A stretch of DNA of 64,000 nt from a virus (Duplodnaviria; Caudoviricetes): IMG/VR virus record IMGVR_UViG_3300017766_003924, positions 20,478 to 84,477 of that record; one strand, 5' to 3'. Below are positions 1-45,221 of the stretch, piece by piece. Position numbers and translations under genes: made by a program. The first letter of the stretch is position 1. Each line of letters opens with the position of its first letter. The notes under the pieces were generated by a model. It saw only the letters and a list, made by a program, of their open reading frames with translations. It was not told the origin of the DNA and searched no databases.

Positions 1-68
1 CTACCGGTACCACATGCTGTGCATTGCATTGCTAAAGGACGAGAAATAGGTCGTGTATTAGGATTCAT
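1..68 (-). CDS. 5' end of a hypothetical protein running off the window (MNPNTRPISRPLAMQCTACGTG...), possible CxxC zinc ribbon
   Basis: Manual translation; ATG at 68, TAAATA 6 nt upstream, CTAC motif. Partial. Confidence 0.5.
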   Translation of the reverse strand, partial: MNPNTRPISRPLAMQCTACGTG

Positions 69-80
69 ATTAAATATTTA

Positions 81-1001
81 TTACTGTAACCGACTAATTA
101 AGCTACTGACTGTTTTAGGCATGTTTACCTTCTTAGTGAAGAGAGCCTTCCAATTGTACATATATTTGACATGATCCATTAAACCATGATTAGTGCAGAG
201 CATCTCAAAATAGGTCCAATCTGGCTTTAGATCCTTCTTTGCTTCAAATTGCTTCTCATAAACGGGTAACTCTTCTAATTCAATTTCTACTCCCCGGCTG
301 ATATTCATCATATCAAAATTTTCAGATATGACTTGACGCTGTTCATCGGTTAATGATTTGAGATTTTCATCCCAATTTGAAATGAATTTACGAGATTTAA
401 CTTCTCCATATCCTTCGAGACCTTTAATATTATCTGAAGCATCACCTTTAATAACTTTATACTTTAAGAAATCTTCTCGGCGCAACTTGAATTTACTTTC
501 AAATGTCTCAAGGGTTATGAGTTCCTTTTTGATCGGTAAGAAGACATTTGTATTATGATCAACTAATTGACATAAGTCTTGATCTGCAGTAACTATTGTA
601 ACCTTATCATCTTTATGTTTTGTAGAGAGATAATATATTACATCATCACCTTCAAGGACATTGGGGTAGATGCATTTAATACCTAATGCAGTTAAGAGCT
701 CACTAATTGCTTCTTCATCCTTATGAATGTCGTAAACATCAGTCTTGTCTCTGTTTGCCTTATAGGAACCTTCTTTAAGCTTCTTTCTAAAGTTTGTAGA
801 GGGGTAGGTAAGCTTTTTATCCCATGCTCCATATATCACATCAGGCGCGAATGTCTTGATGTACGACTTAACACACATTAAAAATACGTTCAGGTTGTTT
901 ATATTTTCACCTGCAGAATTTAGTGTAGGTTCATTGAGCTTTGTGACATGATAAATTCTATATAAAAGATTGTTATTGTCAAGTATTAATACCCTTTTCA
1001 T
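81..1001 (-). CDS. rnh: T4 RNase H-like 5'-3' exonuclease / flap endonuclease
   Basis: LILDxNNL N-terminus, YKANR, EGDDVI, TADQDLCQL, GDASDNIKG (helix-hairpin-helix) FEN/PIN motifs. Confidence 0.9.
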   Translation of the reverse strand: MKRVLILDNNNLLYRIYHVTKLNEPTLNSAGENINNLNVFLMCVKSYIKTFAPDVIYGAWDKKLTYPSTNFRKKLKEGSYKANRDKTDVYDIHKDEEAISELLTALGIKCIYPNVLEGDDVIYYLSTKHKDDKVTIVTADQDLCQLVDHNTNVFLPIKKELITLETFESKFKLRREDFLKYKVIKGDASDNIKGLEGYGEVKSRKFISNWDENLKSLTDEQRQVISENFDMMNISRGVEIELEELPVYEKQFEAKKDLKPDWTYFEMLCTNHGLMDHVKYMYNWKALFTKKVNMPKTVSSLISRLQ

Positions 1002-1060
1002 ACTTTAATTATAATACATCCTTTCAGATGTATATGAGAAATCTTGTATATTATTCACTG

Positions 1061-1408
1061 TTAACTCAAATCAGCATCATCATCAGGAATAAATCCTGAA
1101 TTTCTCAATGATGAGAAGAAATGACCTAAGAGGTGAGAAAGAGAATCAAGCTCTTGATCATTGTGCTTGCAGATTAACATAATTCTCTTCCCTTCATTAT
1201 CATACCCCATAAGAGTAAAGCACGTCAACTGCTTCTGAAGATCATTAATAAGATTCTGCGTTGCAGGATCGATATTATCTTGACCACCAGGAATGGTAGA
1301 TGAAAATGATTCAATAGCATTTACCACATCATCTAAGCCTGAGTCTTGCTTAGCAGGTTCAGGAACAGTCGGTGTATTATCTTTTTGTTTTTCTTTTTTA
1401 TGTGCCAT
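1061..1408 (-). CDS. hypothetical protein
   Basis: 115 aa ORF packed in the replication operon. Confidence 0.6.
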   Translation of the reverse strand: MAHKKEKQKDNTPTVPEPAKQDSGLDDVVNAIESFSSTIPGGQDNIDPATQNLINDLQKQLTCFTLMGYDNEGKRIMLICKHNDQELDSLSHLLGHFFSSLRNSGFIPDDDADLS

Positions 1409-1727
1409 ATGTATATCTAATAATGTTTTGAGGTTTTATACCATATTTTAGAAGATAGCGCAATACTACTTCCATTGAATCGGTATCAAGCTGTAGGTGT
1501 CTCGGAAACCATTGACCACCATCATTAAACTCAAAACTAACCTGATTAAATTCTGTCTTGTTTTCGTAACAAGTTATAAAGAGTGCATTTACCGTAGGGT
1601 TAACGAGTATAGTCCACTTTCTAGGGTCAACATCTGAATAATCTGCAAATATCTTATTTGCAATGTATCCATTATCTCTAAGCCTCTTTAGAAAGTAGCT
1701 TAGTGTTGTGACCTTATTCTTTGGCAT
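1398..1727 (-). CDS. hypothetical protein
   Basis: 109 aa ORF overlapping neighbours. Confidence 0.65.
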   Translation of the reverse strand: MPKNKVTTLSYFLKRLRDNGYIANKIFADYSDVDPRKWTILVNPTVNALFITCYENKTEFNQVSFEFNDGGQWFPRHLQLDTDSMEVVLRYLLKYGIKPQNIIRYTYGT

Positions 1728-2458
1728 TACTTTATTAAGCTTGCAGCTATATATAGAAATTTATTATGGTCGTCGGAAATATCAAATAATGTAACTCCTA
1801 GTTCACTATTGATTTTAATCTTAATATCTTCAGATCGCGTTGCTGCTATGATTCGTATTGTATCAAATGGTAAAATTACTGGATCAGTCAACTCTGTACC
1901 AACTAATGTTGTATTAACGGTCAGAGTAAAGTTATCTACATTATCTCTACTCTTATCGTCTAATTCAATGATAACGGTATCTTGATTACAGGTGATATAC
2001 ACCTTACTGCAATCTTGAATAACCGTACTAGCTCTAATCACCTCTACGACATTTCTATATGTGAGACTAAATGAGGTATCCCACTTTAATGCTTTTATTT
2101 TCTGAACGTTTACTTGAGGTACTGATGCAATCCCGCTCTCAAGTAAGTGATATGTAAATCTAATTTTTGAATCTTTATATTTGAGATTATTGTCATCATA
2201 TATAAAGTCAAATTCATCTGCTTCAATAAACTTTACCATCTTTATTAACTTACCTACATTTGGTAAATCAATAGTAATTTTGTCAAAATCTTGATCACAA
2301 TTACAAAGCGTTGATGTGATTAAAATTAATGTTCCGTCAACATTTTGAGCAATAGATGATATTGCTGTCTTAGTAAGATTGACGGAACAGAGATTTGTAA
2401 TTCTTGCTATACTGTCTAAAAAGTCGAGAAATTTAGCTTTGTTTAGAGTAATTTTCAT
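1727..2458 (-). CDS. 45: DNA polymerase sliding clamp (gp45-like)
   Basis: 243 aa, two-domain beta-rich pattern, N-terminal 'FLDFLDSIARI' helix, replication context. Confidence 0.7.
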   Translation of the reverse strand: MKITLNKAKFLDFLDSIARITNLCSVNLTKTAISSIAQNVDGTLILITSTLCNCDQDFDKITIDLPNVGKLIKMVKFIEADEFDFIYDDNNLKYKDSKIRFTYHLLESGIASVPQVNVQKIKALKWDTSFSLTYRNVVEVIRASTVIQDCSKVYITCNQDTVIIELDDKSRDNVDNFTLTVNTTLVGTELTDPVILPFDTIRIIAATRSEDIKIKINSELGVTLFDISDDHNKFLYIAASLIK

Positions 2459-2951
2459 TGTCGTAATTCAATGTTATACTCTTAATGGGCTTTTTCAATG
2501 TATCTTCTAATTTCTTATTGATTTTATTCTGTGTGTCTAATTTATCAGATAATAATAACACAGAGTCAGAGAGAGATTTTAATATGTCGAGAATTTGCTT
2601 TTGACCGTCTAGTAGAGAATTATACTGCTCTAGTGAGATATTCGCAATATTAGGTGCGGGCTTTACGACTGTAGCAGGCTGTACTGTGGGTTGTGGTGGT
2701 GCTACAGGTTGAGGTACTGGTCTACTAATTTCCTGAGCTATATCCGCAACAGGGTCAGGTTTATTTGCGAGTGCTTCTCTAACTGATTTATTTACAAGAT
2801 CCTTGACAACTGTAGCAGGCTGTCTGATATCACGCTTAAGTTGGTTCGTAGGGTTCGTAATGGAACTGTTTACATCATTAAGTTGCCGCGTTGTCATAAA
2901 AGACAACGCGGCAAGCGCTTGCATTTCCTGTATAGTGTCGTTATTACTCAT
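2433..2951 (-). CDS. hypothetical protein with Pro-rich linker and C-terminal coiled coil
   Basis: 172 aa ORF between gp32 and clamp; true start uncertain. Confidence 0.6.
   Translation of the reverse strand: MSNNDTIQEMQALAALSFMTTRQLNDVNSSITNPTNQLKRDIRQPATVVKDLVNKSVREALANKPDPVADIAQEISRPVPQPVAPPQPTVQPATVVKPAPNIANISLEQYNSLLDGQKQILDILKSLSDSVLLLSDKLDTQNKINKKLEDTLKKPIKSITLNYDNENYSKQS
2883..2914. repeat. perfect 13-bp inverted repeat (TTGCCGCGTTGTC-ataaaa-GACAACGCGGCAA)
   Basis: Read directly; lies just downstream of gp32, within the next ORF's 5' end. Confidence 0.85.
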
Positions 2952-3792
2952 TATCTTTATTTAATCCATCGAGAAGAGAGTCAATACTCACATCTTCATC
3001 GATAGATGTCTTCGGATCCGCATAAGGAATATCATCATCAGCAGGTTCAGCCTTTGCTTTTGCTGCTTTTGCTGGAGCCTTAGCAGGAGCCTCTTCCTTA
3101 ACTTCTCCATAGAAGTCTTCAGTGAAGAGTTTCTTTAAGTCATTATAAGACTTAACTTGAACTAAGCTTGCTAACTCAATTGGATTAGCTAATACTTCCT
3201 TAATCTTAGCTTCACTATCTAATCCTTCGATAGCTGATGCCTTTGTCTTAAACTTAGAAGATACGAAGGAAGGAAAATCTCCTTGCTTCTCACACTTGAT
3301 AACTAAGTTGCAACCATTCTTTGAGAGATCGAAAATCCTCTCACCGAGTTCATCCGCATCTTCCTCCATAGCGCTCATAATGATCTTATGAAGCTGTTTT
3401 CCGAATCGGAGAATCTTAACAGAGCCATTATTTTCAGGCTTAGACTGGTCTTCAATAACCCAAACCTTAACTAACCAGCTCTCTTTGCGAACTACACCTG
3501 CAATCTTTTCCTTCTCAATAGCAGATCCTGACTTGAGAATCTTACCACGAATTTCAGAAATTGGATCAGGCTGCTCGTATGTAGTAGGAGATGTTTCAAT
3601 AATAAAGTTGTTATTAGTGAAGCTCTTCCAACCATGAGTGTAATAATGAAAGAATGTACTTTCAGGTTTCTTTACATTAGGAATAAGACGAACGGTGTAG
3701 GTCTTACCAACTTCGAGCTTTAAAATGTCTTTGAAGCTATTAGTTTGAGGCTTTTTGAGGGTGTCCTTGATACTTGTAAATAAGTTATTCAT
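2944..3792 (-). CDS. 32: single-stranded DNA-binding protein (gp32-like)
   Basis: TYTVRLIP, FFHYYTHGW, DPISE, GKQL..II, FDLSKNGCNL, YxSSKF-like core, acidic C-terminal tail. Confidence 0.88.
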   Translation of the reverse strand: MNNLFTSIKDTLKKPQTNSFKDILKLEVGKTYTVRLIPNVKKPESTFFHYYTHGWKSFTNNNFIIETSPTTYEQPDPISEIRGKILKSGSAIEKEKIAGVVRKESWLVKVWVIEDQSKPENNGSVKILRFGKQLHKIIMSAMEEDADELGERIFDLSKNGCNLVIKCEKQGDFPSFVSSKFKTKASAIEGLDSEAKIKEVLANPIELASLVQVKSYNDLKKLFTEDFYGEVKEEAPAKAPAKAAKAKAEPADDDIPYADPKTSIDEDVSIDSLLDGLNKDNE

Positions 3793-3839
3793 ATATTTGT
3801 TTCTTGTTTATTTGTGAATAATTGTTAATTTATTCATAA

Positions 3840-4502
3840 TTATTTAATACTATTCACATCAGATTTCAACAAGGTTTCTACAATTTTTTTCAGTTTTGTA
3901 AAGTTTTGTGAGGTATAAAGCTGCATCCGGAACCAATCACTTTTGTTGTATCTTTCACCTAATGTAAATTCAAGATAATCTTTATCCTGAAACTTAAAAA
4001 ATACATCTTCAATATTAAAGAGTAGGAGAGTATAAATGTTTACACTTCTATTCTTTAAATGGATGATGCAGGAGGGTACATAACTGCTTTCAGTTGTAAA
4101 GTTGATGTACTCACCTATACTAATTTTATTTTCTTTACAAAACTCAATAATGAACTTTATAGATCTCTTGGTGAGGGCAATTTGTTCTGGAGCATCAGGA
4201 GGTAGTAAATCTATATGTTTACAATAAGTCGTATAATCCTTGATTGCTTTAGGTGAGGTAAAATAATTTAATGCATAATACCTCTCTTCACACGACTCTC
4301 TAATATTAAACGGAGACTTTAAAAATATGTCTACATCTATATAAGGATGTGATTTAAAGAATATGCAGAGCTTTTTTAAGTGTGGATATACATCACCATC
4401 TTCAAATCCTGAGAAGTCTTTTCTATATTTGAATGGTAGACCCTTCGATGTACGTGTCACTCTTAGAAACACATTATAGATATACTTCTCGTATTCAGTC
4501 AT
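3840..4502 (-). CDS. hypothetical protein, possibly helicase loader (gp59-like)
   Basis: 220 aa basic/aromatic protein directly upstream of gp32; call rests on size and position only. Confidence 0.4.
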   Translation of the reverse strand: MTEYEKYIYNVFLRVTRTSKGLPFKYRKDFSGFEDGDVYPHLKKLCIFFKSHPYIDVDIFLKSPFNIRESCEERYYALNYFTSPKAIKDYTTYCKHIDLLPPDAPEQIALTKRSIKFIIEFCKENKISIGEYINFTTESSYVPSCIIHLKNRSVNIYTLLLFNIEDVFFKFQDKDYLEFTLGERYNKSDWFRMQLYTSQNFTKLKKIVETLLKSDVNSIK

Positions 4503-4795
4503 TACTTAAAATTCTTTGTTATAAACGCTTTATGCGAATTAATGTACTTTTGTATGTATTTACTTTTAAACAGGGTCGGATCAATTTCTAAATAGGTTCT
4601 AAACAGTTCTTGATCGCTATCAGTGTTAATTGCTGCTTTTAATGTTTCCCTATACTCTTTATTTTTTAGAAGGAGAAGGAATACTTGTGCAAAATTAAAC
4701 TTACGACCGTAGAGGAGAGAGAGCCAGGTACAAAAGGTGATTATTAACTTCTTTGTTTCTATGTCTTCGATATTTTCTGAATTAAAGTGCTTCAT
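4502..4795 (-). CDS. hypothetical protein
   Basis: 97 aa ORF in operon. Confidence 0.55.
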   Translation of the reverse strand: MKHFNSENIEDIETKKLIITFCTWLSLLYGRKFNFAQVFLLLLKNKEYRETLKAAINTDSDQELFRTYLEIDPTLFKSKYIQKYINSHKAFITKNFK

Positions 4796-4800
4796 TTACT

Positions 4801-5721
4801 TTATTTAACTTGTACAAATGTTTTTGTAAACTTTGCAAATTCAGCCGTTATCTTTCCACCTGCAGCTTTTTCGTGACCCCCACCATCAATAAGTGATTGA
4901 GCTACTGTAGAGAGATTGAGTTTACAATTTTTAGATTTACGAATTGATACCTTTTGAGTTGCTAAATCAACATAAAAGACAACATCAAATTTATACTTGT
5001 TGTTTATGATGCCGATAAGTTCATTAGGGTAATAAGGCTTTAGTGATGGTGTAATTATCGGTTGAATTATACCTACAGAATATTTTTCATCATCAATCTT
5101 ACAATTATCTTTTTTGTAAATATTGCACACCTTTAACTGACTAGCAATTTTACTCTTTTCTGTCTGTATAATATCTTGCTGGTCATAGCTAAATCCATCA
5201 AACCCATCCTGGAACAGCTCTATAAAGTCAGCTGCTTTTGAATCCCATGGTAGTGAATTATACACAAACATTAAGTTGAGAGTATCCTTATATTTCAACC
5301 TATAGCAATCATAATCATCAATAAGTGATATTAACTTAATTTGCTCTAACGTAAGCTTAATATCAGGATACTTTTTAGAGAATATATTGAACAATAATTT
5401 AGTACAGCTTGTATCAACTTTATGGTTAATTATTGCAGAACGATATACTGCTGTATTATGTGACTCATGATGGTCATAGATAATGTTTCCGATAGAGTCT
5501 ATGCACTTGTTTGTTGTTGCAAGTTGAGATAGATCTAAATCAAAGAACAATACTTCATCATATGACATTCTTTCAGTCTTAAACCAATATTCAATCTTAG
5601 AAGAACAAGATGAAAGAGCTGACGTCATATACTTGAACTCCTTATCGGGGTGAAACCATTTGTATACTAAGAGACACCCTACACCATCTAGGTCCCAGTC
5701 AGAGAAAATAAAAGTTTTCAT
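4801..5721 (-). CDS. DHH-family phosphoesterase
   Basis: DxDLDG, FFDL, YDHH, IDDYD and C-terminal GGGHEKAAG (DHHA1) motifs. Confidence 0.9.
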   Translation of the reverse strand: MKTFIFSDWDLDGVGCLLVYKWFHPDKEFKYMTSALSSCSSKIEYWFKTERMSYDEVLFFDLDLSQLATTNKCIDSIGNIIYDHHESHNTAVYRSAIINHKVDTSCTKLLFNIFSKKYPDIKLTLEQIKLISLIDDYDCYRLKYKDTLNLMFVYNSLPWDSKAADFIELFQDGFDGFSYDQQDIIQTEKSKIASQLKVCNIYKKDNCKIDDEKYSVGIIQPIITPSLKPYYPNELIGIINNKYKFDVVFYVDLATQKVSIRKSKNCKLNLSTVAQSLIDGGGHEKAAGGKITAEFAKFTKTFVQVK

Positions 5722-5733
5722 ATTTGTATTATA

Positions 5734-7092
5734 TTATTCATCATCAGATTTAAAGAGCTTATTTACGGTATTTAATACTGCTACAGTTTCATCAGTACTA
5801 GATATATCTTCATCTTGACTAAGTGTTAATGTTTCGTAATCGATATTCATACGAAATGCACCGAAGTTAGGACCAAAGCGACTCTTACAGATGCCTAGAT
5901 TTATAACTCCTAATTCCTTTTCTTCATCTTGTTGCCAGAGAACACCAATAAAGTCAGGTGTAGTTGCGAGACCGAGACTCTCACCAAGTGTTTCAATACC
6001 CGGATTTACTTCTGTTAACCCATCACGATTAATTTGAGCTGCCGAAATAATAGGGCATTCAAATACATAAGAAAGAGCTCTTACCTGCTCTACTATATAC
6101 TTTCCTTTTTCATAAAGAGTAGTACCTACAAGGGAGTTAAGGATTGTGAGGTAATCAATAACAATTGCATCGATTTTCTTATACTTCTTAACAATCTTTT
6201 TAAAGAATCCTTCAAGCTGCTTTGGAGTAATGGTACTTGGTGGAAATTCCTTTACAATAATTCTACTGTGTGGATTTTTTGTCTTATATGCATTAACTCT
6301 ATTTTTAAGTTCAGAAGTATTTTGAGCAAGAGATCCTATAGGTATTTTTGTGATGCGAGAAGAGAGTCTCTTTGCATACATCAATTCTGACATCTCTAAT
6401 GAGACAAGAAGTACAGTCTTACCTTGATCAGCCATGTTACAAACCAGATTACCAAGCATGATTGATTTACCTACATTGGTACCACCTGCAAATAAGTATA
6501 GCGCTCTACCAGATTCTATGAATCCTCCACCTATCTTCTTATCAAGCCACTCAAAGCCAGTTGAAATATATTTTTCTGTAGCAAGAAGATCTTTTATATG
6601 TCGATCTATGTTTCCTAAATAATCTAAACCTAAATCATGTATAAGAGTAATACTACATACATCTTCAAATCGTTTAAGTACTTCAGACGTGTTTATATCT
6701 CCACTTTCACATTGAGTTGCAGTATCAACTAATGCAAAATATAGCTCTTTCTCTTTAATAAATTTTTCAGTATTGTAATACAGTTCATCTTTATTAAACT
6801 TTGAATCTATACCTTTAAGACCTTCTAACAGACTTCTAAAATTTGTTTTTTGCTCTTCTGTTAGAAGGTATGACTTAATTTCTGTAGTATTCGGTAGCGC
6901 ACCTCTCTTAGTGTAAAAGTCTTTAATAATCTGAACTACATCACGTGAAGCAGGCTTAGTAAATATTTTTGGTGTTAAATGTTCTATAGTTGATGCAAGA
7001 AACTCTTCATTCGTCAATATATTATAGATTATAACATCTTCAAAAAAATTCAAATTGATCGCGCTGTTCTGTTGAACGCTTTTTTTCGCCAT
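5734..7092 (-). CDS. 41: replicative DnaB-like helicase (gp41)
   Basis: GGTNVGKS Walker A, SLEMSE, VKEFPP, IVIDYL, SAAQINR, KSRFG. Confidence 0.93.
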   Translation of the reverse strand: MAKKSVQQNSAINLNFFEDVIIYNILTNEEFLASTIEHLTPKIFTKPASRDVVQIIKDFYTKRGALPNTTEIKSYLLTEEQKTNFRSLLEGLKGIDSKFNKDELYYNTEKFIKEKELYFALVDTATQCESGDINTSEVLKRFEDVCSITLIHDLGLDYLGNIDRHIKDLLATEKYISTGFEWLDKKIGGGFIESGRALYLFAGGTNVGKSIMLGNLVCNMADQGKTVLLVSLEMSELMYAKRLSSRITKIPIGSLAQNTSELKNRVNAYKTKNPHSRIIVKEFPPSTITPKQLEGFFKKIVKKYKKIDAIVIDYLTILNSLVGTTLYEKGKYIVEQVRALSYVFECPIISAAQINRDGLTEVNPGIETLGESLGLATTPDFIGVLWQQDEEKELGVINLGICKSRFGPNFGAFRMNIDYETLTLSQDEDISSTDETVAVLNTVNKLFKSDDE

Positions 7093-7125
7093 ATGTATAT
7101 ATTATCAGTATTCTTGATAATACAA

Positions 7126-7875
7126 TTAGGTACCCCACTTTTGTAAAAACTTTTCTTGATTAGCTTTGAAGATTGGGTCCTCTAGAGATTTAAGACCAGG
7201 AGAAACGTGGAATATATTGTGTACTTGTGAAAATACCCCTATCTTTAGACGCTTTTCATTGGCTGCTAAACAGAAGTCTAAATCGTAACAATGAAAAGAG
7301 AATTGATTATCAAACTGGAGGTTATTATCTTGAAGAGTTTTTAATGTAGTACACATTATGAGACCATCAACAAGAATACACCGCTGTCCTTGAGGTCCAA
7401 ATGTTGTTACACATTCAACATCTCCATATGGATGAGATACAGCACCGGCCCATGCTTTACGATCAGACATTATATGCCATAGTGTAGGCTCTGTAATATT
7501 TAAGAGACCACCAGAACCTGCTGCTCCTACAATATCGAACTTCTCAAAATCTTTATAGAGTCCTTGATAAAAGAATGAAAGGCTCGATCTAATAAATACA
7601 TCATCATGTACAAATACTACAATTTGATCTCCCTTGGTATTTTTTGAAAGATGCTTTACTGCATCATTATATACCTTCGAGAGTGAATCAGTATTACTAT
7701 GCTTTATAAGGTGTGTATATTGAACACCTTCAATATTACAATGAAAGGTAGCATACTCAGCGGAAATATCTGAATAAATCCAGGTTTTTTCATCAACATA
7801 CTTGAATATGTTAGTGCTTATATTACCTACTGATTGTTTAGTGGCTGTAACGAATGTAATGTTTAATTTATTCAT
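7126..7875 (-). CDS. GT-A fold glycosyltransferase (family 2-like)
   Basis: SLSKVYN, VFVHDDV (DxD-like), DIVGAAG, VDGLIM, FHCYDLDFC. Confidence 0.8.
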   Translation of the reverse strand: MNKLNITFVTATKQSVGNISTNIFKYVDEKTWIYSDISAEYATFHCNIEGVQYTHLIKHSNTDSLSKVYNDAVKHLSKNTKGDQIVVFVHDDVFIRSSLSFFYQGLYKDFEKFDIVGAAGSGGLLNITEPTLWHIMSDRKAWAGAVSHPYGDVECVTTFGPQGQRCILVDGLIMCTTLKTLQDNNLQFDNQFSFHCYDLDFCLAANEKRLKIGVFSQVHNIFHVSPGLKSLEDPIFKANQEKFLQKWGT

Positions 7876-8530
7876 CTATAAAATAAGAAGATTTGATTAC
7901 TGTTTTTAATAGGATGTTGTTGAAGATATCGTATGCGCATCCGTTGGGTAGTTCATTGAAGGACGCCGTTTTGACAGATGAAAAGCTTGTATCATTAAAA
8001 TAGAGAGTTGACCCATTACGAGCTATATATACCTTCTTTGATTTTTCATCCAGACACCAAATACCTACAGTTCCTTCTAGGAGTTCTAATGTTTTGAGTA
8101 TACCTATATGAGTATCATAGTCACTAAACTCTAAACCAATTAACTTGGGTATTATTTCTGAATCAACAGAAGATTTAAGTAATTCTCGAGCATTATATGT
8201 CTTAACTAATTCAGAGTAGTTAGAAATTACTCCATTATGAGCAACGAGTAAATATCTACTTCTAAAGGGGTGCATATTCGAGCGGGCAGGTTCTCTCTCA
8301 CAAGTAGTAGGTGCTTGTGTGTGACCGAGATAGTAAAAATTATCACCTGGATCAGGCTTTTGAAATAATACAGCATCTATATCAATAGGCATTTTAAAGA
8401 TGTGTTCTGTTGTACGGCCAAAATTTCTTTCAAATTCTATAAATGATACTGCTTTAGAGCCTCGCGTTAAGTTATCTCTATAGAGTTGTTTAAATTCTGT
8501 TAAATCGTTTGATCCAAATATTCCACACAT
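7868..8530 (-). CDS. stand-alone class II (Ntn) glutamine amidotransferase
   Basis: N-terminal MCGIFG nucleophile Cys, GHTQAPT, HPF, AHNGVISN, DSE motifs. Confidence 0.85.
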   Translation of the reverse strand: MCGIFGSNDLTEFKQLYRDNLTRGSKAVSFIEFERNFGRTTEHIFKMPIDIDAVLFQKPDPGDNFYYLGHTQAPTTCEREPARSNMHPFRSRYLLVAHNGVISNYSELVKTYNARELLKSSVDSEIIPKLIGLEFSDYDTHIGILKTLELLEGTVGIWCLDEKSKKVYIARNGSTLYFNDTSFSSVKTASFNELPNGCAYDIFNNILLKTVIKSSYFIDE

Positions 8531-8535
8531 ATATT

Positions 8536-9561
8536 TTAATTATTGTTTAATTGAACGGTAAAATCAACATGTTTTATAGCTGATAAATCCTTACCACCTG
8601 CATAACTTATAGATGATTGAAGTGCTTCTTTAATATTTTGAGTAACCTCTCTAATAGTACATCCTGCAGCAATCTCTAATTCTCTACCTTCAATGTGTTT
8701 ATTTGTTTTCTTTGCTTGAAATGATGTAGACCCATAGTAGACCTTTTTACCATCTTTTATCTCAGCCGGTGAATCAATACATTGTGCAAAGAGTCTACCG
8801 GTCATAACCATATCAGCACCGAACCTTATTGCCTTAGCAATATCACCAATATGTTTAACACCACCGTCTGCTATGAGATATTTTCGTTTAAAGATTCCAG
8901 GTGTTGATGCACACTTATATCTCCATTCACATAATGCATCCCAACACTTATCTATTGCAGTTACCATAGGCATTGAAAACCCTGTTTGAAGGCGGGTAGT
9001 ACAAATAGACCCTTGTCCTATTCCGACCTTTACAATGTCAGCACCTGCATCAAAGAGATCCATAGTACCATCATATGTAGTCACGTTACCTGCAATAATA
9101 ATTACTTCAGGAAATAAGCTCTCTATCAGTTTAATCCTATCATACACTTTACTATGATGACCATGAGCTACGTCAATGGTGATAAAGTCTACTCTGTGTT
9201 TTCCCTTGTGTATGTCTTTAAGTACTAATTCCGTATCTTCATTAACACCTGTACTTATACTTACAACATTAAAATCAGCATTGTTTGCATATTCAACAAA
9301 TTTATAAACGTCTATATTTTCGAGTCGATGCATTACATAGAAAATATTGAGACTATCATATAGTTGAGCAGTTTCAGTATTTACAACTGTAGCCATATTA
9401 GCAGGTATTACAGGTAAATTAAATTTAAACAGCTTTTTCTTATGAGGAAATGTTAATGTTACTGATGTATCTCCTACTGACCGTGTAGGAAGTGTAGATG
9501 ACATGGGTGTTAAGAGTACATTATCATAACACAATGCTATTTTATCATTAAAGTCAATCAT
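8536..9561 (-). CDS. guaC: GMP reductase (IMPDH/GMPR family, no CBS domains)
   Basis: [53 protein letters not shown]-terminus typical of GuaC. Confidence 0.82.
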
Positions 9562-10271
9562 ACTATTGGCTTACAGTTGTATTTCTCCCAGTTAATAGTC
9601 TTTGAATATGATACTGGGTCTATATATCCTGCATCTATAAATCCTTTAATACGACTCGAGCATGAAGGACACTCACCACATGAAAGTATATTCTTTGAAT
9701 AGCAAGTCCGTGTATCTTTAAAGTCTATTCCACACTTGATACCTAATTCAATTATTTCTTTCTTTGAAAGCTTAATAAGAGGTGCTTCGATAGATATCTG
9801 ATTTCTACGATTTAGTGAAGTTACTTTATTCATCCATAACCAAAACTCTTCACTAGCATCCCAATATCCACTTACCGTATCAATTTCTGCTGCACCATAG
9901 AATACCTTCTCTGCACCATAGTTTTCTGCACATGCACATGCAATAGAAAGCATCATCATGTTTCTAAACGGTACATAAGTCGTAGGTTGTGGATCCCCTA
10001 AGATGTCTTTCATTTTAGGAATATCTAATTGATCATTTGTCAGAGATGATATTTGTGTTACATCTTTAAGAAATGAAATATCGAGCTGTTTATATGATGC
10101 TCCTATTTTAGCAGTTTGTGACTGAGCATTATTCAATTCGAAAGAGTGTTTCTGTCCATAGTAAAAACCTAGAGTCTGAATTTTATCATACCCTAGGTTT
10201 TTGTGTACGTGATGTAATACTACTGAAGAGTCGAGCCCTCCACTTAATACTACTAACGCTTTTTTAATCAT
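9558..10271 (-). CDS. queC: 7-cyano-7-deazaguanine (preQ0) synthase
   Basis: LSGGLDS PP-loop, YGQKH, TYVPFRN, CY...CGECPSC zinc site. Confidence 0.95.
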   Translation of the reverse strand: MIKKALVVLSGGLDSSVVLHHVHKNLGYDKIQTLGFYYGQKHSFELNNAQSQTAKIGASYKQLDISFLKDVTQISSLTNDQLDIPKMKDILGDPQPTTYVPFRNMMMLSIACACAENYGAEKVFYGAAEIDTVSGYWDASEEFWLWMNKVTSLNRRNQISIEAPLIKLSKKEIIELGIKCGIDFKDTRTCYSKNILSCGECPSCSSRIKGFIDAGYIDPVSYSKTINWEKYNCKPIV

Positions 10272-10287
10272 ATATGATTATCATATA

Positions 10288-11415
10288 TTATTCTTCATCG
10301 TTTTCAATCGCTTTTTCTTGTAATATAACGGCTTCGACTTCTTTTATCGAGTTATAGCGATACTTAGACTGAACAATCTTATCCAATTCTGGAATAAGTT
10401 TCTTCCATACCTCTGCATCTTTCTCGAAATTTTTACGGTAACCTAACTTTTCACCTGTCGCTTTGATGGTAAATGTCTTACCATTTGTCTCGATTATTCC
10501 ATAGTTAACACACATATCTATTAACCCTGAGTATTGATCTAACCCAGTGAGGAAGTTGTTGTACATCGATGCCTTGAGGAAAGGTGGCACAAAGCGGTTT
10601 TTTACAGTAAAGGCACCGAGAGTAACGCCACTAAATCTATGACCTTCTGCAATCATAGTGTCTTGATCATTATTTTCATCCTTCTTCTCATTGCTTACAG
10701 TTGTCTGTACTAATACTGACGCAAGATAAATCGGCCCAGATCCACCTGCTTGATTCTTAACAGTAGAGGCATACATTGCTGCAGGGTCATCATAAGTATG
10801 ATTAGTGAAAATAATGGTGACACCAGCTTTTGCGGCTTTATAAGTTAACACTCTCATCATTGCCTTTAATTGCTTTGCACGGAGACCCATGTCTGATGCA
10901 TCCTTACCTTCTACTGCATCTTTAATTTCTTTAGCTGTGGTAAGATTGCCTAGTGAGTCAATACCGATAATAATTTCATTCTTGATTTTAGATTCAATAA
11001 TCTTATCGAGAAAGTTAACAACCTGATTCTTACAGTCATTAATTGTCTGGACGGGGTACCACTTTGCACGTTTAACATCAACACCCATTGCAAGTGCAGA
11101 TGCTCTATCTTGTGCTACTTCAGAATCCCATATTGCAGCATAAAGATTTTTGTCTCTCTTTTGAGCATTACCGATAATCTTATTGAGAATGCTAGACTTG
11201 CCTGACATTGAAGGACCGGAAAAGCCGGTAATACGAGCCTTAGGAATACCACCTTCAACCAGCTTACCGGATATGATTGCATTTAAAGCGTAGCATCCTG
11301 TATCATACCATTTATCTACAGTTGATAAGGTTACTTTATCAAGCCATTCCCCATCGGGATTAAGTTTATCTACTACAGAAAACAAATCATTTATTTCATC
11401 AGAATTTTTACTCAT
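10288..11415 (-). CDS. uvsX: RecA-like recombinase UvsX
   Basis: DTGCYALNAIISG, GPSMSGKS, IDSLGNL, DMGLRAK, FTNHTY, GGSG. Confidence 0.93.
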   Translation of the reverse strand: MSKNSDEINDLFSVVDKLNPDGEWLDKVTLSTVDKWYDTGCYALNAIISGKLVEGGIPKARITGFSGPSMSGKSSILNKIIGNAQKRDKNLYAAIWDSEVAQDRASALAMGVDVKRAKWYPVQTINDCKNQVVNFLDKIIESKIKNEIIIGIDSLGNLTTAKEIKDAVEGKDASDMGLRAKQLKAMMRVLTYKAAKAGVTIIFTNHTYDDPAAMYASTVKNQAGGSGPIYLASVLVQTTVSNEKKDENNDQDTMIAEGHRFSGVTLGAFTVKNRFVPPFLKASMYNNFLTGLDQYSGLIDMCVNYGIIETNGKTFTIKATGEKLGYRKNFEKDAEVWKKLIPELDKIVQSKYRYNSIKEVEAVILQEKAIENDEE

Positions 11416-11441: not shown

Positions 11442-11472
11442 AAAAAGCAACGGCGGTTAGCCGTTGCTTTTT
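11442..11472 (-). terminator. rho-independent terminator (possibly bidirectional)
   Basis: AAAAAGCAACGGC-ggtta-GCCGTTGCTTTTT stem with T tracts on both strands. Confidence 0.85.
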
Positions 11473-11884: not shown

Positions 11885-14482
11885 TCAAGAGAATAAATCT
11901 AGCAAATTTGATTTTACTTGGCGATCTGGCCGAGTAATAGGCCATTTTGCTATTTCATAAAAGCTTTCAACGATTGAAAATACGATTTTTGAGAACATGA
12001 GCTCATAGTCAACTTTAAGATCTCGTTTAAATTCTTCTGGAAAGTAATATTTGTATCCGATTGACGATATTCCATACTTATTAGGTGACTGTACATAAAG
12101 ATACCTTACCTTATCTCCCGTACCTATTGGTTCATATTGCTTATCTACTCCATATTTCTTAAGAAGTATGTTATGAAAGTATGCAGCCTTAACATGAATA
12201 GGCATCCCTTTATTGGTCTTAAAGTCTATACACTTTGTTGCATGCTTTTCATAATCAGATATGCCAGAAGTAAATGAAATATCAGTAATGTCTAGAGCTT
12301 TGAATATCGTATAAGTTTCAAATACAACTTCATTAGTCTTTTTGATATCCTGTGTGGTAATCATAGTTTCTATGATTTTCTTGATATAAGGCTTGACTGG
12401 TTTAGGCAATGTAGTTCGTACTACTTCAACACCAACATACTTCCATTTATTGCAGGGTATCTTTTTGTTATCTAATACATGCAGCACATATCTCTTTTTT
12501 TCTTTGAAAAATGCAGTATCACAGATAGCTTCTCGTTTGAATATAAATCTACAATCCATTGAGTTGAGCTCGGTTACACCCCAATTATAAATCTCTTTAT
12601 TGAGATGATTTTCTATATCATTAACTATTTTATGTACTCCGCTTGATACATTACCCGTCTTTGAGTCAATGAACTCGATTTTAAGCTTATCTACAACAGG
12701 CTTGAGAGTAATGTAACTTGAATCTGTATCGTTATATATAGATACATCACACGTTTCATTAATAAGTTTAGATACGTATGAATTTAAAATTTCGTTAGAT
12801 TGCTTAATGACTGCTTGACCAGTTAAAGTAATAGATCTTGCTATATCAGAATCACCCATGGGAGCATATTTGTTACCAAAGTATCCATATGTCCGGTTAA
12901 TTAAAATCTTAAGTGTAAATTGATGAATATCTAACTGTTCATGTTTATACTTAAGCTCTGCAAGTTTATCAGGCTGTTTACCACTTTTTTCCAACTCATA
13001 GATTTCTTTTGATAGAGTATCTGATCGATTTTGAATTTCTACACGTTTCTTGTAATAGTTATCAACAATCTCAGGGAAAATTCCTTTGGTCTTTTGTGTA
13101 AAGCACACTCCTGCTCGAGTGAGTGATAACTTTTCAATTTCTACTAGTTTCTTAAACTTCTCATCAGGTAATGTTACAGTCTTACCATTTATATGTCTAA
13201 ATGTAGTAGTTCCGTCTGAGTTTTTATTCCAATATCCTACTTTAGTCTCTGGTGAGAGATTTAAAGTAATCATAGTATTAGGATATAGACTATTAACGTC
13301 AAATGATGCTATATATTTTTGAAAGCCTTGTTTAGGGGGTGCTACGAACGCACCTTCGTATTTACTATCCTTTTCAAAGCCTGTATCAAATACCGGAGCG
13401 ATTTTACCTCTCTTTCGAGCTTCGATAACAGCGGCTCCTGTGATTACTGAGATTGTACCCATTCCGCTTTCGAAAGGTACTAACCCTACATATGAAAGCA
13501 TTCTTAACAGACCTAAGTACTGAAGTTTACATTCAAGCTTTTTTAAGAGGTTAACGTCCTGAATGTTATATTCAACAAATTTGTTCCAGTCTTTTTCTGC
13601 TAAATCATAGAGACTAATATTACCATAGTCAGTCTTTTTTTCACCTAGTTCTCTCTGTGCAATATCATTTAACTTAAATGATTCTTTGGTACCCGGACTG
13701 AATATTTTATATGCATCAAGATAGTCAACACATGATACACCTTGAATATACCACTTATTGACAAACTTACCATATTGTCCTTGAATCTGTCTACAATATA
13801 CATTCTGTGTTGGTGAAAGCCTTTTTATTTCCTCATCACCAAAGAGTCTCTTGATTCTATTAATAATGTAAGGTATATCAAAGTATTCTGAATTCCACCC
13901 TGAAAGAATATCGTAGTAATCTTTCTCCATATGGGCTAAGAAGCTTGTAAGAAGTTCTCTTTCTGTATGACACCACTTGTATTCTACTGTAGAGTCAAAT
14001 GTATTACCAGTGTATTCGCCCAATCCCCATACAAAGAATTTATTATGTAAGCTGTCATAAATGGTGATTACATTTATTACTGTATCAGCTTCTTCAAGAG
14101 AAGGGAACCCATCTTCTCTAGGGCACTCAATGTCTACAAATCCAATTTTAAGACGATACTTTGTCATATCGTCAGATTCGTTAACTTTATCAAACATGTC
14201 AATGAGAAACTGTTGCTCAGGATTTATGTTTTCATAGATCCGTTTAATGTTTGAGTCTTTTGTATACTTATACCTATCGTAACCAGAAGGAAATACTTTT
14301 TTCTTGAGTGTAGTATTAAAGAGACTTATTAATCCTGTTTTTTCTGCTGTTTCAATGTAGAGATAAGGATTGTAAGAAATATCTACAGAGATGCGTTTAC
14401 CTTCCTCATCCCAGGTGAATAACCTACAGCACCCTAAACGAGGAAGGTAAACGACGTTCCGATAACCGGGAAAATAATTCAT
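11885..14482 (-). CDS. 43: family B DNA polymerase (gp43)
   Basis: Exo motifs DIE, SGWNSEYFDIPY, YNIQDV; Pol motifs SFDVNSLYP, KILINRTYG, YNDTDS, KKRY. Confidence 0.97.
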   Translation of the reverse strand: MNYFPGYRNVVYLPRLGCCRLFTWDEEGKRISVDISYNPYLYIETAEKTGLISLFNTTLKKKVFPSGYDRYKYTKDSNIKRIYENINPEQQFLIDMFDKVNESDDMTKYRLKIGFVDIECPREDGFPSLEEADTVINVITIYDSLHNKFFVWGLGEYTGNTFDSTVEYKWCHTERELLTSFLAHMEKDYYDILSGWNSEYFDIPYIINRIKRLFGDEEIKRLSPTQNVYCRQIQGQYGKFVNKWYIQGVSCVDYLDAYKIFSPGTKESFKLNDIAQRELGEKKTDYGNISLYDLAEKDWNKFVEYNIQDVNLLKKLECKLQYLGLLRMLSYVGLVPFESGMGTISVITGAAVIEARKRGKIAPVFDTGFEKDSKYEGAFVAPPKQGFQKYIASFDVNSLYPNTMITLNLSPETKVGYWNKNSDGTTTFRHINGKTVTLPDEKFKKLVEIEKLSLTRAGVCFTQKTKGIFPEIVDNYYKKRVEIQNRSDTLSKEIYELEKSGKQPDKLAELKYKHEQLDIHQFTLKILINRTYGYFGNKYAPMGDSDIARSITLTGQAVIKQSNEILNSYVSKLINETCDVSIYNDTDSSYITLKPVVDKLKIEFIDSKTGNVSSGVHKIVNDIENHLNKEIYNWGVTELNSMDCRFIFKREAICDTAFFKEKKRYVLHVLDNKKIPCNKWKYVGVEVVRTTLPKPVKPYIKKIIETMITTQDIKKTNEVVFETYTIFKALDITDISFTSGISDYEKHATKCIDFKTNKGMPIHVKAAYFHNILLKKYGVDKQYEPIGTGDKVRYLYVQSPNKYGISSIGYKYYFPEEFKRDLKVDYELMFSKIVFSIVESFYEIAKWPITRPDRQVKSNLLDLFS

Positions 14483-14512: not shown

Positions 14513-15700
14513 TTATTTCAAATACTTTCTTAGCGGTGAACCGAAAGGTGTAGTATAGAGCTCGAAATGCTTCGAAAGATTTTCATCATTTTCTAAAAAT
14601 CTCGTTTCTGCATACTTACGAGCTGATCGTGAAATATTCATATAGTCTGTTGAATAATTCAAAACCTTTTTAAGTTGATCAATCATTTCGTCTCCAGTCT
14701 TAAAGCGATATGGAGCATTTGAATAGGTACAAAGATCTTGACAGACAATCGGAATACCATAGCAGCATGCTTCGATATATTTTAAATCGCTCTTTGCTTT
14801 ATTGAAGGTGTTGTCTTGTAAAGGTGCAACCATTGCCTGTACATTAAGGTTATCAATCTGTTCAGGGTAATCATAGATAGGCTTCCAGGGATGGAATTCA
14901 ATTTTACCACTCTTAACAAGATCTTGCAGAGATAGGGGATATGCACCTAAAAATACCCATTGAAATTGATTTACAGTAGAGCGTACAGCATTAAGAACAT
15001 GCTCAAAATCATCTCTTTGCTTGACTCGGTTATCTACATCAAAATGAGCGCCGGAACCGGGATATAACACACGTGGCTTCTTTTTATTCTTTGAAAAGTT
15101 TGTGTAGATCTTTTGTTCATTATAAAATCTTCCCATCCAAAACTTAGGTGGGTAATTAGGTATAACTGTAACATTAGGGTTACCTGTCTTTGATTTATAA
15201 TAATCCTTCATGAAATCGCATGTAACAGAGATTTCATCACACATGTTCATTATTTCAATTGCAGCCTTTTTAATTTCTGGATCCGCAAATGCAATCTTAA
15301 ATTTATTATATTCTGGAATATCTTCATGGAATATAATGTCATCTATCTCGTAGATTAATTTACATTTAGTGTGTTCCTTAAGAAACCGTATAAATTGTAA
15401 TTGGTGAGGTGCAGCTTGCCGCTGAATCTTAACTGTCTGAAGGTTCTCGTAATACTTTAAATCGAGAATCATTGTAGAATTACTCGACACATTTAACCGC
15501 TGATAACCATTTAGTAGTTGTTCAGGCCAGAGCATTCTCCAGTATCCACAACCGCTCGTATCTGCGATATAATTATGACACCGCTGAAGGGTTGCTTCCT
15601 TCATTTCAATTGGTTGATTTGGAGCAGCGTGCGGTACTACTGGTGTGAACTGCTTTATGTGTGATAATCCAAAATGTGGTAAATTAGGAATCTGTATCAT
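14513..15700 (-). CDS. GT-B fold glycosyltransferase
   Basis: GCGYWRM, YEIDD, CDEISVT, VIPN, VAPLQDNTFNKAKSDLKYIE, GIP motifs. Confidence 0.8.
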   Translation of the reverse strand: MIQIPNLPHFGLSHIKQFTPVVPHAAPNQPIEMKEATLQRCHNYIADTSGCGYWRMLWPEQLLNGYQRLNVSSNSTMILDLKYYENLQTVKIQRQAAPHQLQFIRFLKEHTKCKLIYEIDDIIFHEDIPEYNKFKIAFADPEIKKAAIEIMNMCDEISVTCDFMKDYYKSKTGNPNVTVIPNYPPKFWMGRFYNEQKIYTNFSKNKKKPRVLYPGSGAHFDVDNRVKQRDDFEHVLNAVRSTVNQFQWVFLGAYPLSLQDLVKSGKIEFHPWKPIYDYPEQIDNLNVQAMVAPLQDNTFNKAKSDLKYIEACCYGIPIVCQDLCTYSNAPYRFKTGDEMIDQLKKVLNYSTDYMNISRSARKYAETRFLENDENLSKHFELYTTPFGSPLRKYLK

Positions 15701-24901: not shown

Positions 24902-26025
24902 GTAATTTCTTTACACATATTGAACATTTTGAAGACTATTTTTTAGATTATAGGAACCTACCAAGGCTACAATCCTTTATAGATGATATATCTCTAGGTT
25001 TAAATACCACAGTAAATCATAAGGTTGATGGTAATATTATGATTATATTCGGGATCAACAAATTCAACAGTAAATTCTTCATCGCAACTAAATCAGGAGT
25101 CTCTGTATCATCACCTAAATTTATCTATAGCGTAGAGGATATATTCAAGCATTATCCCGGTGATGATAGAATAAGTTTGAGGCAAAAGCTTACCTGTATT
25201 TTTAAATATCTCAATGAATGGTTTAAAACCATAGCAGATGATAATGATCTTATCTTTCAATGTGATATTCTTTTCGCACACCCCTATATTAGGAAACATA
25301 CTTCCGCTGATCAATTTATATTTCAACCTAATACAGTCGTATATAAGACAACTGATAAAGATTTAAAGGATAGCGTAGTAGGTATATGCATACATTCAGC
25401 ATATATTAATAGATCAGATAAAGAGGCACTTCAACTTGAAAAGTATAAAGGCTTATTTGCATGCAACATAGAATCTACCTCAGATGTATTTGTATGTTCT
25501 AGTAAAGCAAATACCATATCATCAACATATAAAGACCTCCACAATCTTTTACCAAGAATAGACACACCTCTATGTAATGAACATATTGAAAAGTCTTCCC
25601 GTACCTATATATCAAACAAGATAAAGGATTATCTCCACCACGGAAATTGTAGCCAATTAGGTGAATATAATATACATTCATATGCAAGGAGTACTTTAAA
25701 GCTAGGTGAGGGCTGGTGGGATGATGTATTGCTAGAAATGCATGCTAATGAGATAACACGAAGGTTTTCATCAGCATATATAGATAGAGCTAATATACCT
25801 CAGAAGGATATGAGAATGTTTGTTTTGACCGCTATTAACCTCTTGCGTATTAAGTATTACATTTTAAATAAAATTACAAAGATTAACACTCACTTCTTGA
25901 AAGATGGAAAGAGCTTTATCAATGATAAAGAAACTCAAGGTGAAGGGTGGGTCGTAACACATAACGAACTCGAGTTAAAATTTATTGATAGAGCTGAATT
26001 TTCTCAAGCACACTTTTTAAAATGA
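24898..26025 (+). CDS. DUF6267-like protein with ligase-type nucleotidyltransferase motifs
   Basis: HIEHFED, KVDG, FFIATKS, FQPNTVVY, EGWVV, KFIDRAEFS. Confidence 0.6.
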   Translation: MSNFFTHIEHFEDYFLDYRNLPRLQSFIDDISLGLNTTVNHKVDGNIMIIFGINKFNSKFFIATKSGVSVSSPKFIYSVEDIFKHYPGDDRISLRQKLTCIFKYLNEWFKTIADDNDLIFQCDILFAHPYIRKHTSADQFIFQPNTVVYKTTDKDLKDSVVGICIHSAYINRSDKEALQLEKYKGLFACNIESTSDVFVCSSKANTISSTYKDLHNLLPRIDTPLCNEHIEKSSRTYISNKIKDYLHHGNCSQLGEYNIHSYARSTLKLGEGWWDDVLLEMHANEITRRFSSAYIDRANIPQKDMRMFVLTAINLLRIKYYILNKITKINTHFLKDGKSFINDKETQGEGWVVTHNELELKFIDRAEFSQAHFLK

Positions 26026-27674
26026 CATTTGAAATTAATATACCAGTATCCAACATTAATGACTTCAGCCCCTTAATATACTTAGACCTTTATAAAATCA
26101 ACGGTACCCGCGCATTTGTGAAGACCTTTCACACTTCAAAAGTTTTACAATCCTCTAAGGAGTGTTTTAGTTACAAATTTTCCTTTCCAGGTAATAAAGA
26201 AGACTTTAAAGCATTAATAGTTAAACAAGGCGATGAGACAATTTTTAGTGAGTTTTACAATCAACCAGCGCATATTGAAATCAATAACTTTCATATAGTT
26301 GTTGCATGTCGCAATGCTGAAAAGTATATAGGTGAATGTATTAGTAGTATCATACGACAGACCCACTTTAGGTGTAATATTGTAGTGATAGATGATAATT
26401 CTATAGATTCAACAAGCTTAGTAGTACAAGAAATAATAGAGAAATATCCTATTCAAGGAATTCGTATTATTAAGAATGATCAGCATCGCGGTATTGGATA
26501 TTCTAAGAGGTTAGGATGCTCTTTAGCGAAGCCTGGTGATATTATCTGCATTTTAGACGGTGACGACTACTTAACTAACAATCAAGCGCTCGAGAAGATA
26601 AATGAAGAGTATAATAAAGATATACGGGTAGGTTGTATATACACAAACTTTTATTTCATCAATTCAGATAAGGTTGTTCCTGCGCAATGGATATATCAAT
26701 TTAATAATAAACAGAGCGGCTATAAACAAGATTGCGTATCTCACTTTCTTACCTTTAAGGCTGATGTATACAACCTCTCAAAGGGATATGATGCAAGTAA
26801 TAAATTCTGTACAGATAAACAAATTATAAATGAGTTAGCATGTGTAACAAATCTACGCTATTTACCTCTATATACATATGGTTATAGGCTACATCAAGAT
26901 AACATTGATAGCCAGTATACCTCTACTGAAGTTTCAGATAATTTTTTAAGAATAAAGGATATTTATAAAGAGAAGGATAACAATATGTCTATTATTGTTA
27001 CTCATCACAATAGAGATATATTACCCCTCCTTAAATCCATTAATACATCAATAGTTAACAACCTTATTGAACTCATAATTGTTACTACATATAAAGAATT
27101 ACCTGAGCCTATAACAAGCTATATTAATACTGAATTGCAGGTTCCGATTTACATTATTCACTTTAATGAAGAGTTTAATAAGTCTAAGATGATAAATTTA
27201 GGTGTATTATCATCTAACTTTAATAGGTTACTCTTTTTAGATTGTGATATGAAGTTTGATGAGGGGTTTATTAAAAGTGCAAATATTGCCATTGATTATA
27301 GTAATGTATTTTTTCCAATATGTTTTGATGAAGATACAAATACAGCTCGTAATAAAGGATATGGTAATTGTGGTTTAATGAAGCGGGATTTCTATAGAGT
27401 TCAAGGCTTCGACGAAGATTTTAAAACGTGGGGCGGTGAAGACACTCACTTCTTTCATAAATGTTCACTTGAACCCTTCAATATTCACCGACAAGAATAT
27501 CCCACATTTATACATCTTCCTCATGAATATAAGGACGTATGGCATAAAACTGTTGTTAATAGAGATGTTTTGAAGGAAAGTGTTACAGAGTATAGAGCTC
27601 GTGCAGATAAAAATGTTGCATTCTTTAATAAAAAGATTAATGAATACAAGAAAAAATTCTCCATCCAGAGCTAA
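26022..27674 (+). CDS. two-domain glycosyltransferase (GT2 plus galactosyltransferase C-terminal-like domain)
   Basis: VACRNAEKYI, IDDNSID, LDGDD; second domain FNKSKMIN, LFLDCD, GFDEDFKTWGGED. Confidence 0.85.
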   Translation: MTFEINIPVSNINDFSPLIYLDLYKINGTRAFVKTFHTSKVLQSSKECFSYKFSFPGNKEDFKALIVKQGDETIFSEFYNQPAHIEINNFHIVVACRNAEKYIGECISSIIRQTHFRCNIVVIDDNSIDSTSLVVQEIIEKYPIQGIRIIKNDQHRGIGYSKRLGCSLAKPGDIICILDGDDYLTNNQALEKINEEYNKDIRVGCIYTNFYFINSDKVVPAQWIYQFNNKQSGYKQDCVSHFLTFKADVYNLSKGYDASNKFCTDKQIINELACVTNLRYLPLYTYGYRLHQDNIDSQYTSTEVSDNFLRIKDIYKEKDNNMSIIVTHHNRDILPLLKSINTSIVNNLIELIIVTTYKELPEPITSYINTELQVPIYIIHFNEEFNKSKMINLGVLSSNFNRLLFLDCDMKFDEGFIKSANIAIDYSNVFFPICFDEDTNTARNKGYGNCGLMKRDFYRVQGFDEDFKTWGGEDTHFFHKCSLEPFNIHRQEYPTFIHLPHEYKDVWHKTVVNRDVLKESVTEYRARADKNVAFFNKKINEYKKKFSIQS

Positions 27675-44156: not shown

Positions 44157-44159
44157 ATT

Positions 44160-45185: not shown

Positions 45186-45221
45186 TGATTGATTTATTTG
45201 TAGAACATTTAACATATTAGT

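Follow-up and report, generated by a model that had tools for sequence, protein, structure and literature searches.

The window analysed here, a 64,000-nucleotide stretch of phage DNA (bases 20478-84477 of the 84.5-kb IMG/VR record IMGVR_UViG_3300017766_003924, G000), has a G+C content of about 34% and derives from a record with a CheckV completeness estimate of 40%. At 7126-10271 it encodes a minus-strand cassette of four genes, comprising a glycosyltransferase (GT), a glutamine amidotransferase (Gat), a GMP reductase homologue (GuaC) and QueC, an enzyme of 7-deazaguanine synthesis. We consider it about 70% probable that three elements with separate functions, namely QueC with Gat, GuaC, and the GT, simply lie side by side in this cassette, which occupies a variable site within the replication operon. 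Judged by homology, QueC and Gat are parts of a DNA-guanine replacement system of a known type, the DpdA3 type, with the phage immuto as the closest characterized system.

The cassette and its surroundings

The preQ0 (7-cyano-7-deazaguanine) synthase QueC (9558-10271, 237 amino acids; Pfam QueC, E 1.2e-57) also scores above the cut-off of the NCBIfam model TIGR00364 (172 versus 150 bits). It is followed by the GuaC-like GMP reductase homologue, which lacks a CBS domain (8536-9561, 341 amino acids; Pfam IMPDH/GMPR, E 2.7e-54), by a stand-alone class II (Ntn) glutamine amidotransferase (7868-8530, 220 amino acids; Pfam GATase_6, E 3e-10, and GATase_7, E 2.3e-7) and by a PF13712-like GT of the GT-A type (7126-7875, 249 amino acids; Pfam Glyco_tranf_2_5, E 3.9e-9). 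The GT and Gat genes overlap by 8 nt, Gat and GuaC are separated by 5 nt, and GuaC and QueC overlap by 4 nt. The cassette is flanked downstream by a DnaB-like replicative helicase (5734-7092, minus strand; Pfam DnaB_C, E 3.9e-21; phrog_19, E 7e-63) and upstream by a UvsX recombinase (10288-11415, minus strand; Pfam RecA, E 3.8e-19; phrog_97, E 5e-61), beyond which lies a family B DNA polymerase (11885-14482). Open reading frames (ORFs), spacing, Pfam matches and flanks thus agree with a sequence-only reading of this DNA, which had described four packed genes inside the replication operon.

Co-transcription of the cassette is plausible from its sequence, because the sole terminator-like site that falls within it, in the coding sequence of Gat, is a weak 5-bp stem (8345-8357); matches resembling promoters are no more frequent in this region than chance predicts. 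An intrinsic-terminator-like hairpin with a 13-bp stem, six GC pairs and a T run is located upstream of uvsX (11442-11472, minus strand). No match to the cassette was obtained by megablast against 50,697 deposited phage records. The DNA polymerase shares at most about 30% identity with that of any of these phages, and its best matches are T4-like cyanophages; the virus is therefore assigned, on polymerase similarity, to an uncultured T4-like lineage.

Deazaguanine synthesis and probable modification of DNA

All four enzymes of the preQ0 synthesis set are encoded inside the window. In addition to QueC, these are the GTP cyclohydrolase I FolE (28293-28937, minus strand; Pfam E 2.5e-47; NCBIfam E 2e-50), a QueE-like radical SAM enzyme annotated as 7-carboxy-7-deazaguanine synthase (32846-33601, plus strand) and the 6-carboxytetrahydropterin synthase QueD (46816-47292, plus strand; Pfam PTPS, E 6.6e-16). 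The QueE-like protein was detected through Pfam Fer4_12 (E 7e-5) and NCBIfam only, where five QueE models match it (best E 4.8e-18), all under their cut-offs; the radical SAM profile PF04055 was blank on the record. A bimodular QueF precedes the window at positions 95-1021 of the record (PF14489, E 2.2e-19), and the que genes of this phage are dispersed across more than 60 kb.

According to Cui et al. 2023 (PMC10516641), a DpdA is encoded by all phages whose DNA carries a 7-deazaguanine, and members of the DpdA3 subfamily can be recognised by profile methods only. Profiles for tRNA-guanine transglycosylase (TGT)/DpdA (PF01702) and DpdA4 (PF20314) gave no match in the 84-kb record, nor was a DpdA3 present there. 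Starting from the DpdA3 of phage phiST (CGPG_00065), a small profile was built from related IMG/VR homologues (E 4e-16). This profile matches 10 of 26 GT-bearing records, including all five that are at least 90% complete, in which DpdA3 lies 34-163 kb from the GT. QueC and a protein of the DUF366 family likewise occur together with DpdA3 in all five of these near-complete relatives. A tblastn search with the phiST protein did not reach the Campylobacter phage and immuto proteins, whereas the lineage's own DpdA3 reached both.

Contig L249 (JGI 3300017747, 25 kb) was identified by an exact match to the QueF of this phage; it shares 11,022 bp with the start of the record (positions 1-11021) at 99.76% nucleotide identity and reaches 7.8 kb further upstream. 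The contig encodes a DpdA3 (L249:4664-5491) whose start lies outside the record, about 3.2 kb beyond its 5' end. This protein is 46% identical to the 'DNA guanine transglycosylase' of immuto (E 3e-63), 41-42% identical to proteins of the CP220 group and 40% identical to the DpdA3 of the relatives; its direct pairwise comparison with the phiST protein gives E 1e-10. It is accompanied by a DpdN-like formyltransferase (Formyl_trans_N; L249:5918-6448) with 44% identity to immuto DpdN (YP_010114479, E 6e-39). The order DpdA3, small ORF, DpdN, kinase-like gene and QueF is the same as in immuto, except that L249 has an additional ORF of 283 amino acids, on the minus strand, after DpdN and before the kinase-like gene. 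As DpdA3 sits just past the record start, the apparent case of a pathway without DpdA is explained by an assembly-edge effect, and the phage population carries a complete immuto-type enzyme set.

Modification of DNA in this phage is well supported by these gene assignments, because a DpdA3 DNA transglycosylase and the complete immuto-type set are present. The sequence-only reading had favoured DNA over tRNA as the substrate on account of the placement of the genes; its preference for DNA holds, with DpdA3 on the overlapping contig as the support, but gene placement is not what supports it. It is extremely improbable that the que genes serve to make queuosine or archaeosine (G+) in tRNA instead, given that the record yielded no PF01702 match and that the transglycosylase present is DpdA3, whose family occurs in phages with complete substitution of their DNA. 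The guanine-replacing phages of the DpdA3 type would thereby gain a large, aquatic and uncultured lineage of T4-like phages.

In the proposed pathway, FolE, QueD, QueE and QueC would produce preQ0, which QueF would convert to preQ1, and the DpdA3-family transglycosylase would swap guanine in the phage DNA for the deazaguanine. The simplest and most likely role of Gat would be to provide glutamine-derived ammonia to QueC. The most likely base is predicted to be a preQ1 derivative resembling fdPreQ1, which in immuto completely replaces guanine in DNA (Cui et al. 2023, PMC10516641). This phage and immuto have the same enzyme set, with a local gene order alike apart from the one extra ORF of L249. 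Unlike immuto, which has a family A polymerase, this phage is T4-like with a family B polymerase; furthermore, its que genes are scattered and accompanied by an additional que-linked Gat and a DUF366 protein, and its base is a predicted one. The Campylobacter phage CP220 and phiST, with dADG and dDG, respectively, also show complete guanine replacement; phiST is without the full pathway, Campylobacter phages stop at CDG, and QueF is listed for neither (Cui et al. 2023, PMC10516641). What they share with this phage is a transglycosylase of the DpdA3 family, 41% identical in the case of CP220, whereas canonical QueC and QueF set this phage apart from both.

Six complete genomes of relatives were compared, three of which bear the pathway (G008, G013 and G006) and three of which are free of it (G026, 211 kb with terminal repeats; G029, 243 kb; G030, 236 kb), the latter obtained from targeted scans of clades with stand-alone GTs. 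Absence calls were based on six-frame phmmer searches (E <= 1e-3), PF06508 and the DpdA3 profile, with PF01702 run on the three pathway-free genomes only. FolE, QueD, QueE, QueC, Gat, DUF366 and DpdA3 are each present in all three pathway-bearing genomes and in none of the pathway-free ones, from which canonical TGT (PF01702) was also blank. QueF and DpdN are restricted to G008 and G013, GuaC occurs in G026 only, and the GT is encoded by all six and thus, counting the record of the window, by 7/7 genomes.

The presence of QueF and a DpdN-like formyltransferase makes archaeosine less likely than a preQ1 derivative as the base of this phage. Gat-QueC fusions, as found in phage 9g and Crenarchaeota, are associated with G+ (PMC10516641) and likewise combine a class II amidotransferase bearing an N-terminal Cys with the PP-loop ATPase QueC; the Gat of this phage begins with MCGIFG and thus has the N-terminal nucleophile Cys. 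Gat and QueC could accordingly be read as a split archaeosine synthase that yields DNA with dG+ alone or beside preQ1 derivatives, Gat then doing more than donating ammonia for preQ0 synthesis. QueC matches the fusion-length family phrog_10428 at positions 256-460 of 476, Gat matches the fusion-length phrog_4736 at 1-167 of 498, and in G006, a complete relative, QueF and DpdN are missing although QueC, Gat, DUF366 and DpdA3 are all encoded, so that at least G006 must halt at preQ0, ADG or G+. However, Gat and QueC of this phage are separate ORFs with guaC between them and no fusion; QueF is encoded here and in most pathway-bearing relatives, and the DpdN-like enzyme adjoins DpdA3, which points to preQ1 chemistry. 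Furthermore, the single QueC scores as a QueC equivalog, and phage 9g was not among the tblastn matches of Gat. A split synthase is unlikely in this phage, yet it is a serious alternative, above all for G006; the preQ1 derivative is preferred. In the cultured Vibrio phage 2.275.O (MG592671.1, 334988-336252), QueC is directly followed by a Gat-homologous 'nucleophile aminohydrolase', which indicates that a split QueC-Gat pair exists outside this lineage.

Across the six complete genomes Gat strictly co-varies with the que genes, and the same holds for the DUF366 protein, which in this phage is encoded directly upstream of QueD (46230-46814, plus strand; Pfam DUF366, E 4.6e-21). DUF366 is found in 5/5 near-complete pathway-bearing relatives, and its usual neighbours are Gat and the GT. 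Its Atlas model resembles the catalytic domains of biotin/lipoate ligases (TM 0.68); the 2368 members of the corresponding Atlas cluster are mostly viral. Neither Gat nor DUF366 has a detected homologue in immuto, so their perfect co-variation with the pathway, although the closest characterized system shows neither, offers a useful lead. DUF366 is a candidate for an enzyme of deazaguanine metabolism in phages that has yet to be described, and this large, mostly viral family may supply a missing enzyme. Among deposited phages DUF366 matched a single entry, Microcystis phage MaAM05 (L253, MW495066.1, 109-124 kb), which was uninformative, as the surroundings of the gene look bacterial, with glyS, mtgA, fabI, engB and fliM as neighbours. 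A literature search on GMP reductase, DUF366 or glycosyltransferases in connection with phage deazaguanines returned no relevant paper.

The glycosyltransferase with and without the pathway

The GT scores 37 bits against Pfam PF13712, above the gathering cut-off of 27. Its AlphaFold2 model (pLDDT 83.5) matches GT-A enzymes in Foldseek at E 1e-7 to 1e-4, with majastridin in complex with UDP (2qgi, E 1e-7) at the top and RmlT, WrtF and TarP as the next matches, and a DxD-type HDD motif at residues 90-92 is invariant in the family. The model thus predicts a GT-A fold enzyme with a nucleotide-sugar-dependent function. The protein is like majastridin and other GT2-like PF13712 glycosyltransferases in its fold, its HDD motif and the UDP-bound state of its best structural match, and unlike them in belonging to a family that is mostly viral and has no member in the 50,697 deposited phage records, among which immuto, CP220 and phiST gave no tblastn match. 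The GT protein by itself retrieved nothing from IMG/VR, whereas an alignment-based scan found relatives encoded in at least 579 IMG/VR stretches. A search with the family profile retrieved 519 clusters (50% identity) at E<1e-30; in the Atlas the family is mostly viral, and named databases contain few close homologues. Long family members have N-terminal extensions, of which those recognised by Pfam are mostly TPR repeats, with a GT2 domain in one protein. Triple fusions of QueC, Gat and GT were sought among these long members and none contains QueC or Gat; the bacterial contexts of the TPR-fused relatives are too short to be informative.

Among the best 80 GT loci, the order UvsX-QueC-Gat-GT-DnaB predominates. 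Other loci place the gene in a second slot, directly before a conserved small-gene block beginning at window position 47292, in the order QueC-Gat-GT-DUF366 or QueC-GT-Gat-x-DUF366. In a maximum-likelihood tree the stand-alone GTs nest among the que-linked ones; the pathway must accordingly have been lost more than once while the GT was kept. The GTs of the three pathway-free complete genomes retain 24-25 of the 26 family-invariant residues. The GT hence appears to be a conserved core gene of the lineage with a function independent of deazaguanine.

The sequence-only reading had raised the possibility of a sugar-decorated 7-deazaguanine and had proposed the co-occurrence of this GT with queC as a check, naming independent occurrence as one refuting outcome. 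GT and pathway were found to occur apart in both directions, and an orthologous GT persists in three complete genomes without que, dpdA or tgt; because the GT is thus independent of que genes, a sugar-decorated base is not supported. We regard it as improbable that the GT forms a new glycosylated base by attaching a sugar to G+, ADG, preQ1 or a similar 7-deazaguanine in the DNA of the phage. Its recurrent position near QueC, Gat and DUF366, seen in two genomic slots and with more than one gene order, the intact HDD motif on a GT-A fold, its place in the replication operon and the existence of glycosylated 7-deazapurine small molecules such as huimycin and dapiramicin (bioRxiv 10.64898/2026.04.15.718813), speak for such a role. 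These are outweighed in our assessment by the retention of the same invariant residues where que, dpdA and tgt are lacking and by the nesting of the GT-alone lineages. In addition, no GT match was obtained in immuto, CP220 or phiST, the DpdA3 phages whose bases have been measured, the broader family includes TPR-fused members and, on chemical reasoning, preQ1 and fdPreQ1 offer no hydroxyl acceptor. A ThyA-type hydroxymethylase, which could provide an alternative acceptor route for the GT, was found neither in four complete genomes nor in the record.

Several observations weigh against a mere juxtaposition of pathway and neighbours, or against a simple equation with immuto. The GT is embedded among que-linked genes far more often than expected of an unrelated gene: QueC or Gat lies within four genes of it in 42/57 informative unique loci, with the remaining 15 standing alone, and of the 86 loci seeded on DUF366, 45 have the GT no more than 2.5 kb away. 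The trio of QueC, Gat and GT also recurs in a different phage type (L008), as QueC-Gat-x-x-HNH-GT. The comparison of complete genomes comprises only three against three, which are related to one another, and DpdA3 and DpdN are located on an overlapping contig of another assembly and not on the record itself. Finally, immuto makes fdPreQ1 without Gat or DUF366, and the final base inferred for this lineage may therefore differ from that of immuto. It is conceivable, with a similarly small chance as direct glycosylation of a deazaguanine, that in pathway-bearing members the GT, together with the que-linked Gat and the biotin/lipoate-ligase-like DUF366 on either side of it, extends an immuto-type pathway to a glycosylated or acylated preQ1-type DNA base, and that the GT of pathway-free members acts on another acceptor. 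The preferred interpretation of three separate elements tells the pathway genes QueC, Gat and DUF366 apart from their neighbours GT and GuaC, and so avoids a false prediction of a glycosylated deazaguanine.

A second glycosyltransferase (14513-15700, minus strand; phrog_7162, E 2.7e-23, no Pfam match) is encoded beside the DNA polymerase gene and is conserved in 7/7 compared genomes, giving two core GTs in the replication module of the lineage.

GuaC and further genes of the record

GuaC matches the NCBIfam GMP reductase model PRK05458 (E 2.6e-80) with 270 bits, under the cut-off of 344, and TIGR01306 with 243 bits, under the cut-off of 466. Its best match in the PDB is the GMP reductase 1ypf (E 2.5e-58), which aligns end to end, and the catalytic GSICTT loop is retained. 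By its sequence it is a diverged GMP reductase, and as the scores fall under the NCBIfam cut-offs, GMP is its presumed substrate. Among the pathway-bearing relatives and loci examined, GuaC was found only in the record of the window, in two further records (G019 and G022) and at one locus (L056), and it is absent from 5/5 near-complete pathway-bearing relatives. The copy of the pathway-free genome G026 (47% identity) lies at an unrelated locus (60824-61762, L182). GuaC is accordingly best pictured as an ordinary, sporadic nucleotide-pool enzyme, presumably converting GMP to IMP, that landed in a variable slot.

GMP reductase homologues are known to tailor 7-deazapurines in the toyocamycin and tubercidin clusters, where TubD is an NADPH-dependent deaminating reductase (PMC6112128). 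As with ToyE and TubD, an enzyme of the IMPDH/GMPR family is here encoded beside queC, and GuaC adjoins que genes in this phage, at L056 and in G022. GuaC might by analogy reductively deaminate a 7-deaza-GMP analogue and so open a nucleotide-level route to a non-guanine 7-deazapurine. Unlike ToyE and TubD, however, it was found without phosphoribosyltransferase, adenylosuccinate synthetase or lyase partners: PF00156 and PF00709 gave nothing except one sub-threshold match in G000, G019 and G022, all of which are incomplete records, and a Toy-like nucleotide route was rejected on this basis. Furthermore, the enzyme also occurs without que genes, as in G026, and is missing from every near-complete pathway-bearing relative; base exchange by DpdA3 requires no nucleotide intermediate. 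A ToyE/TubD-like function is thus very improbable, and a role in the general nucleotide pool is preferred.

Several other genes were found in none of the other six genomes compared, comprising a methyltransferase (43542-44156), two ORFs without Pfam matches (42709-43569 and 44160-45185) and a double-domain GT2 protein (26022-27674). A gene resembling NAD-dependent epimerases/GDP-fucose synthases (45222-46226) adjoins the record-specific group around the methyltransferase, and by their annotations the genes at 42709-46226 and 26022-27674 look like a strain-specific sugar-metabolism island. The window also contains a single 661-amino-acid ORF (29842-31827, plus strand) that combines an AAA_33 kinase-like domain, the head domain of PolyA_pol/CCA-adding nucleotidyltransferases and an HD domain, and that is followed by a second tRNA-nucleotidyltransferase-like ORF.

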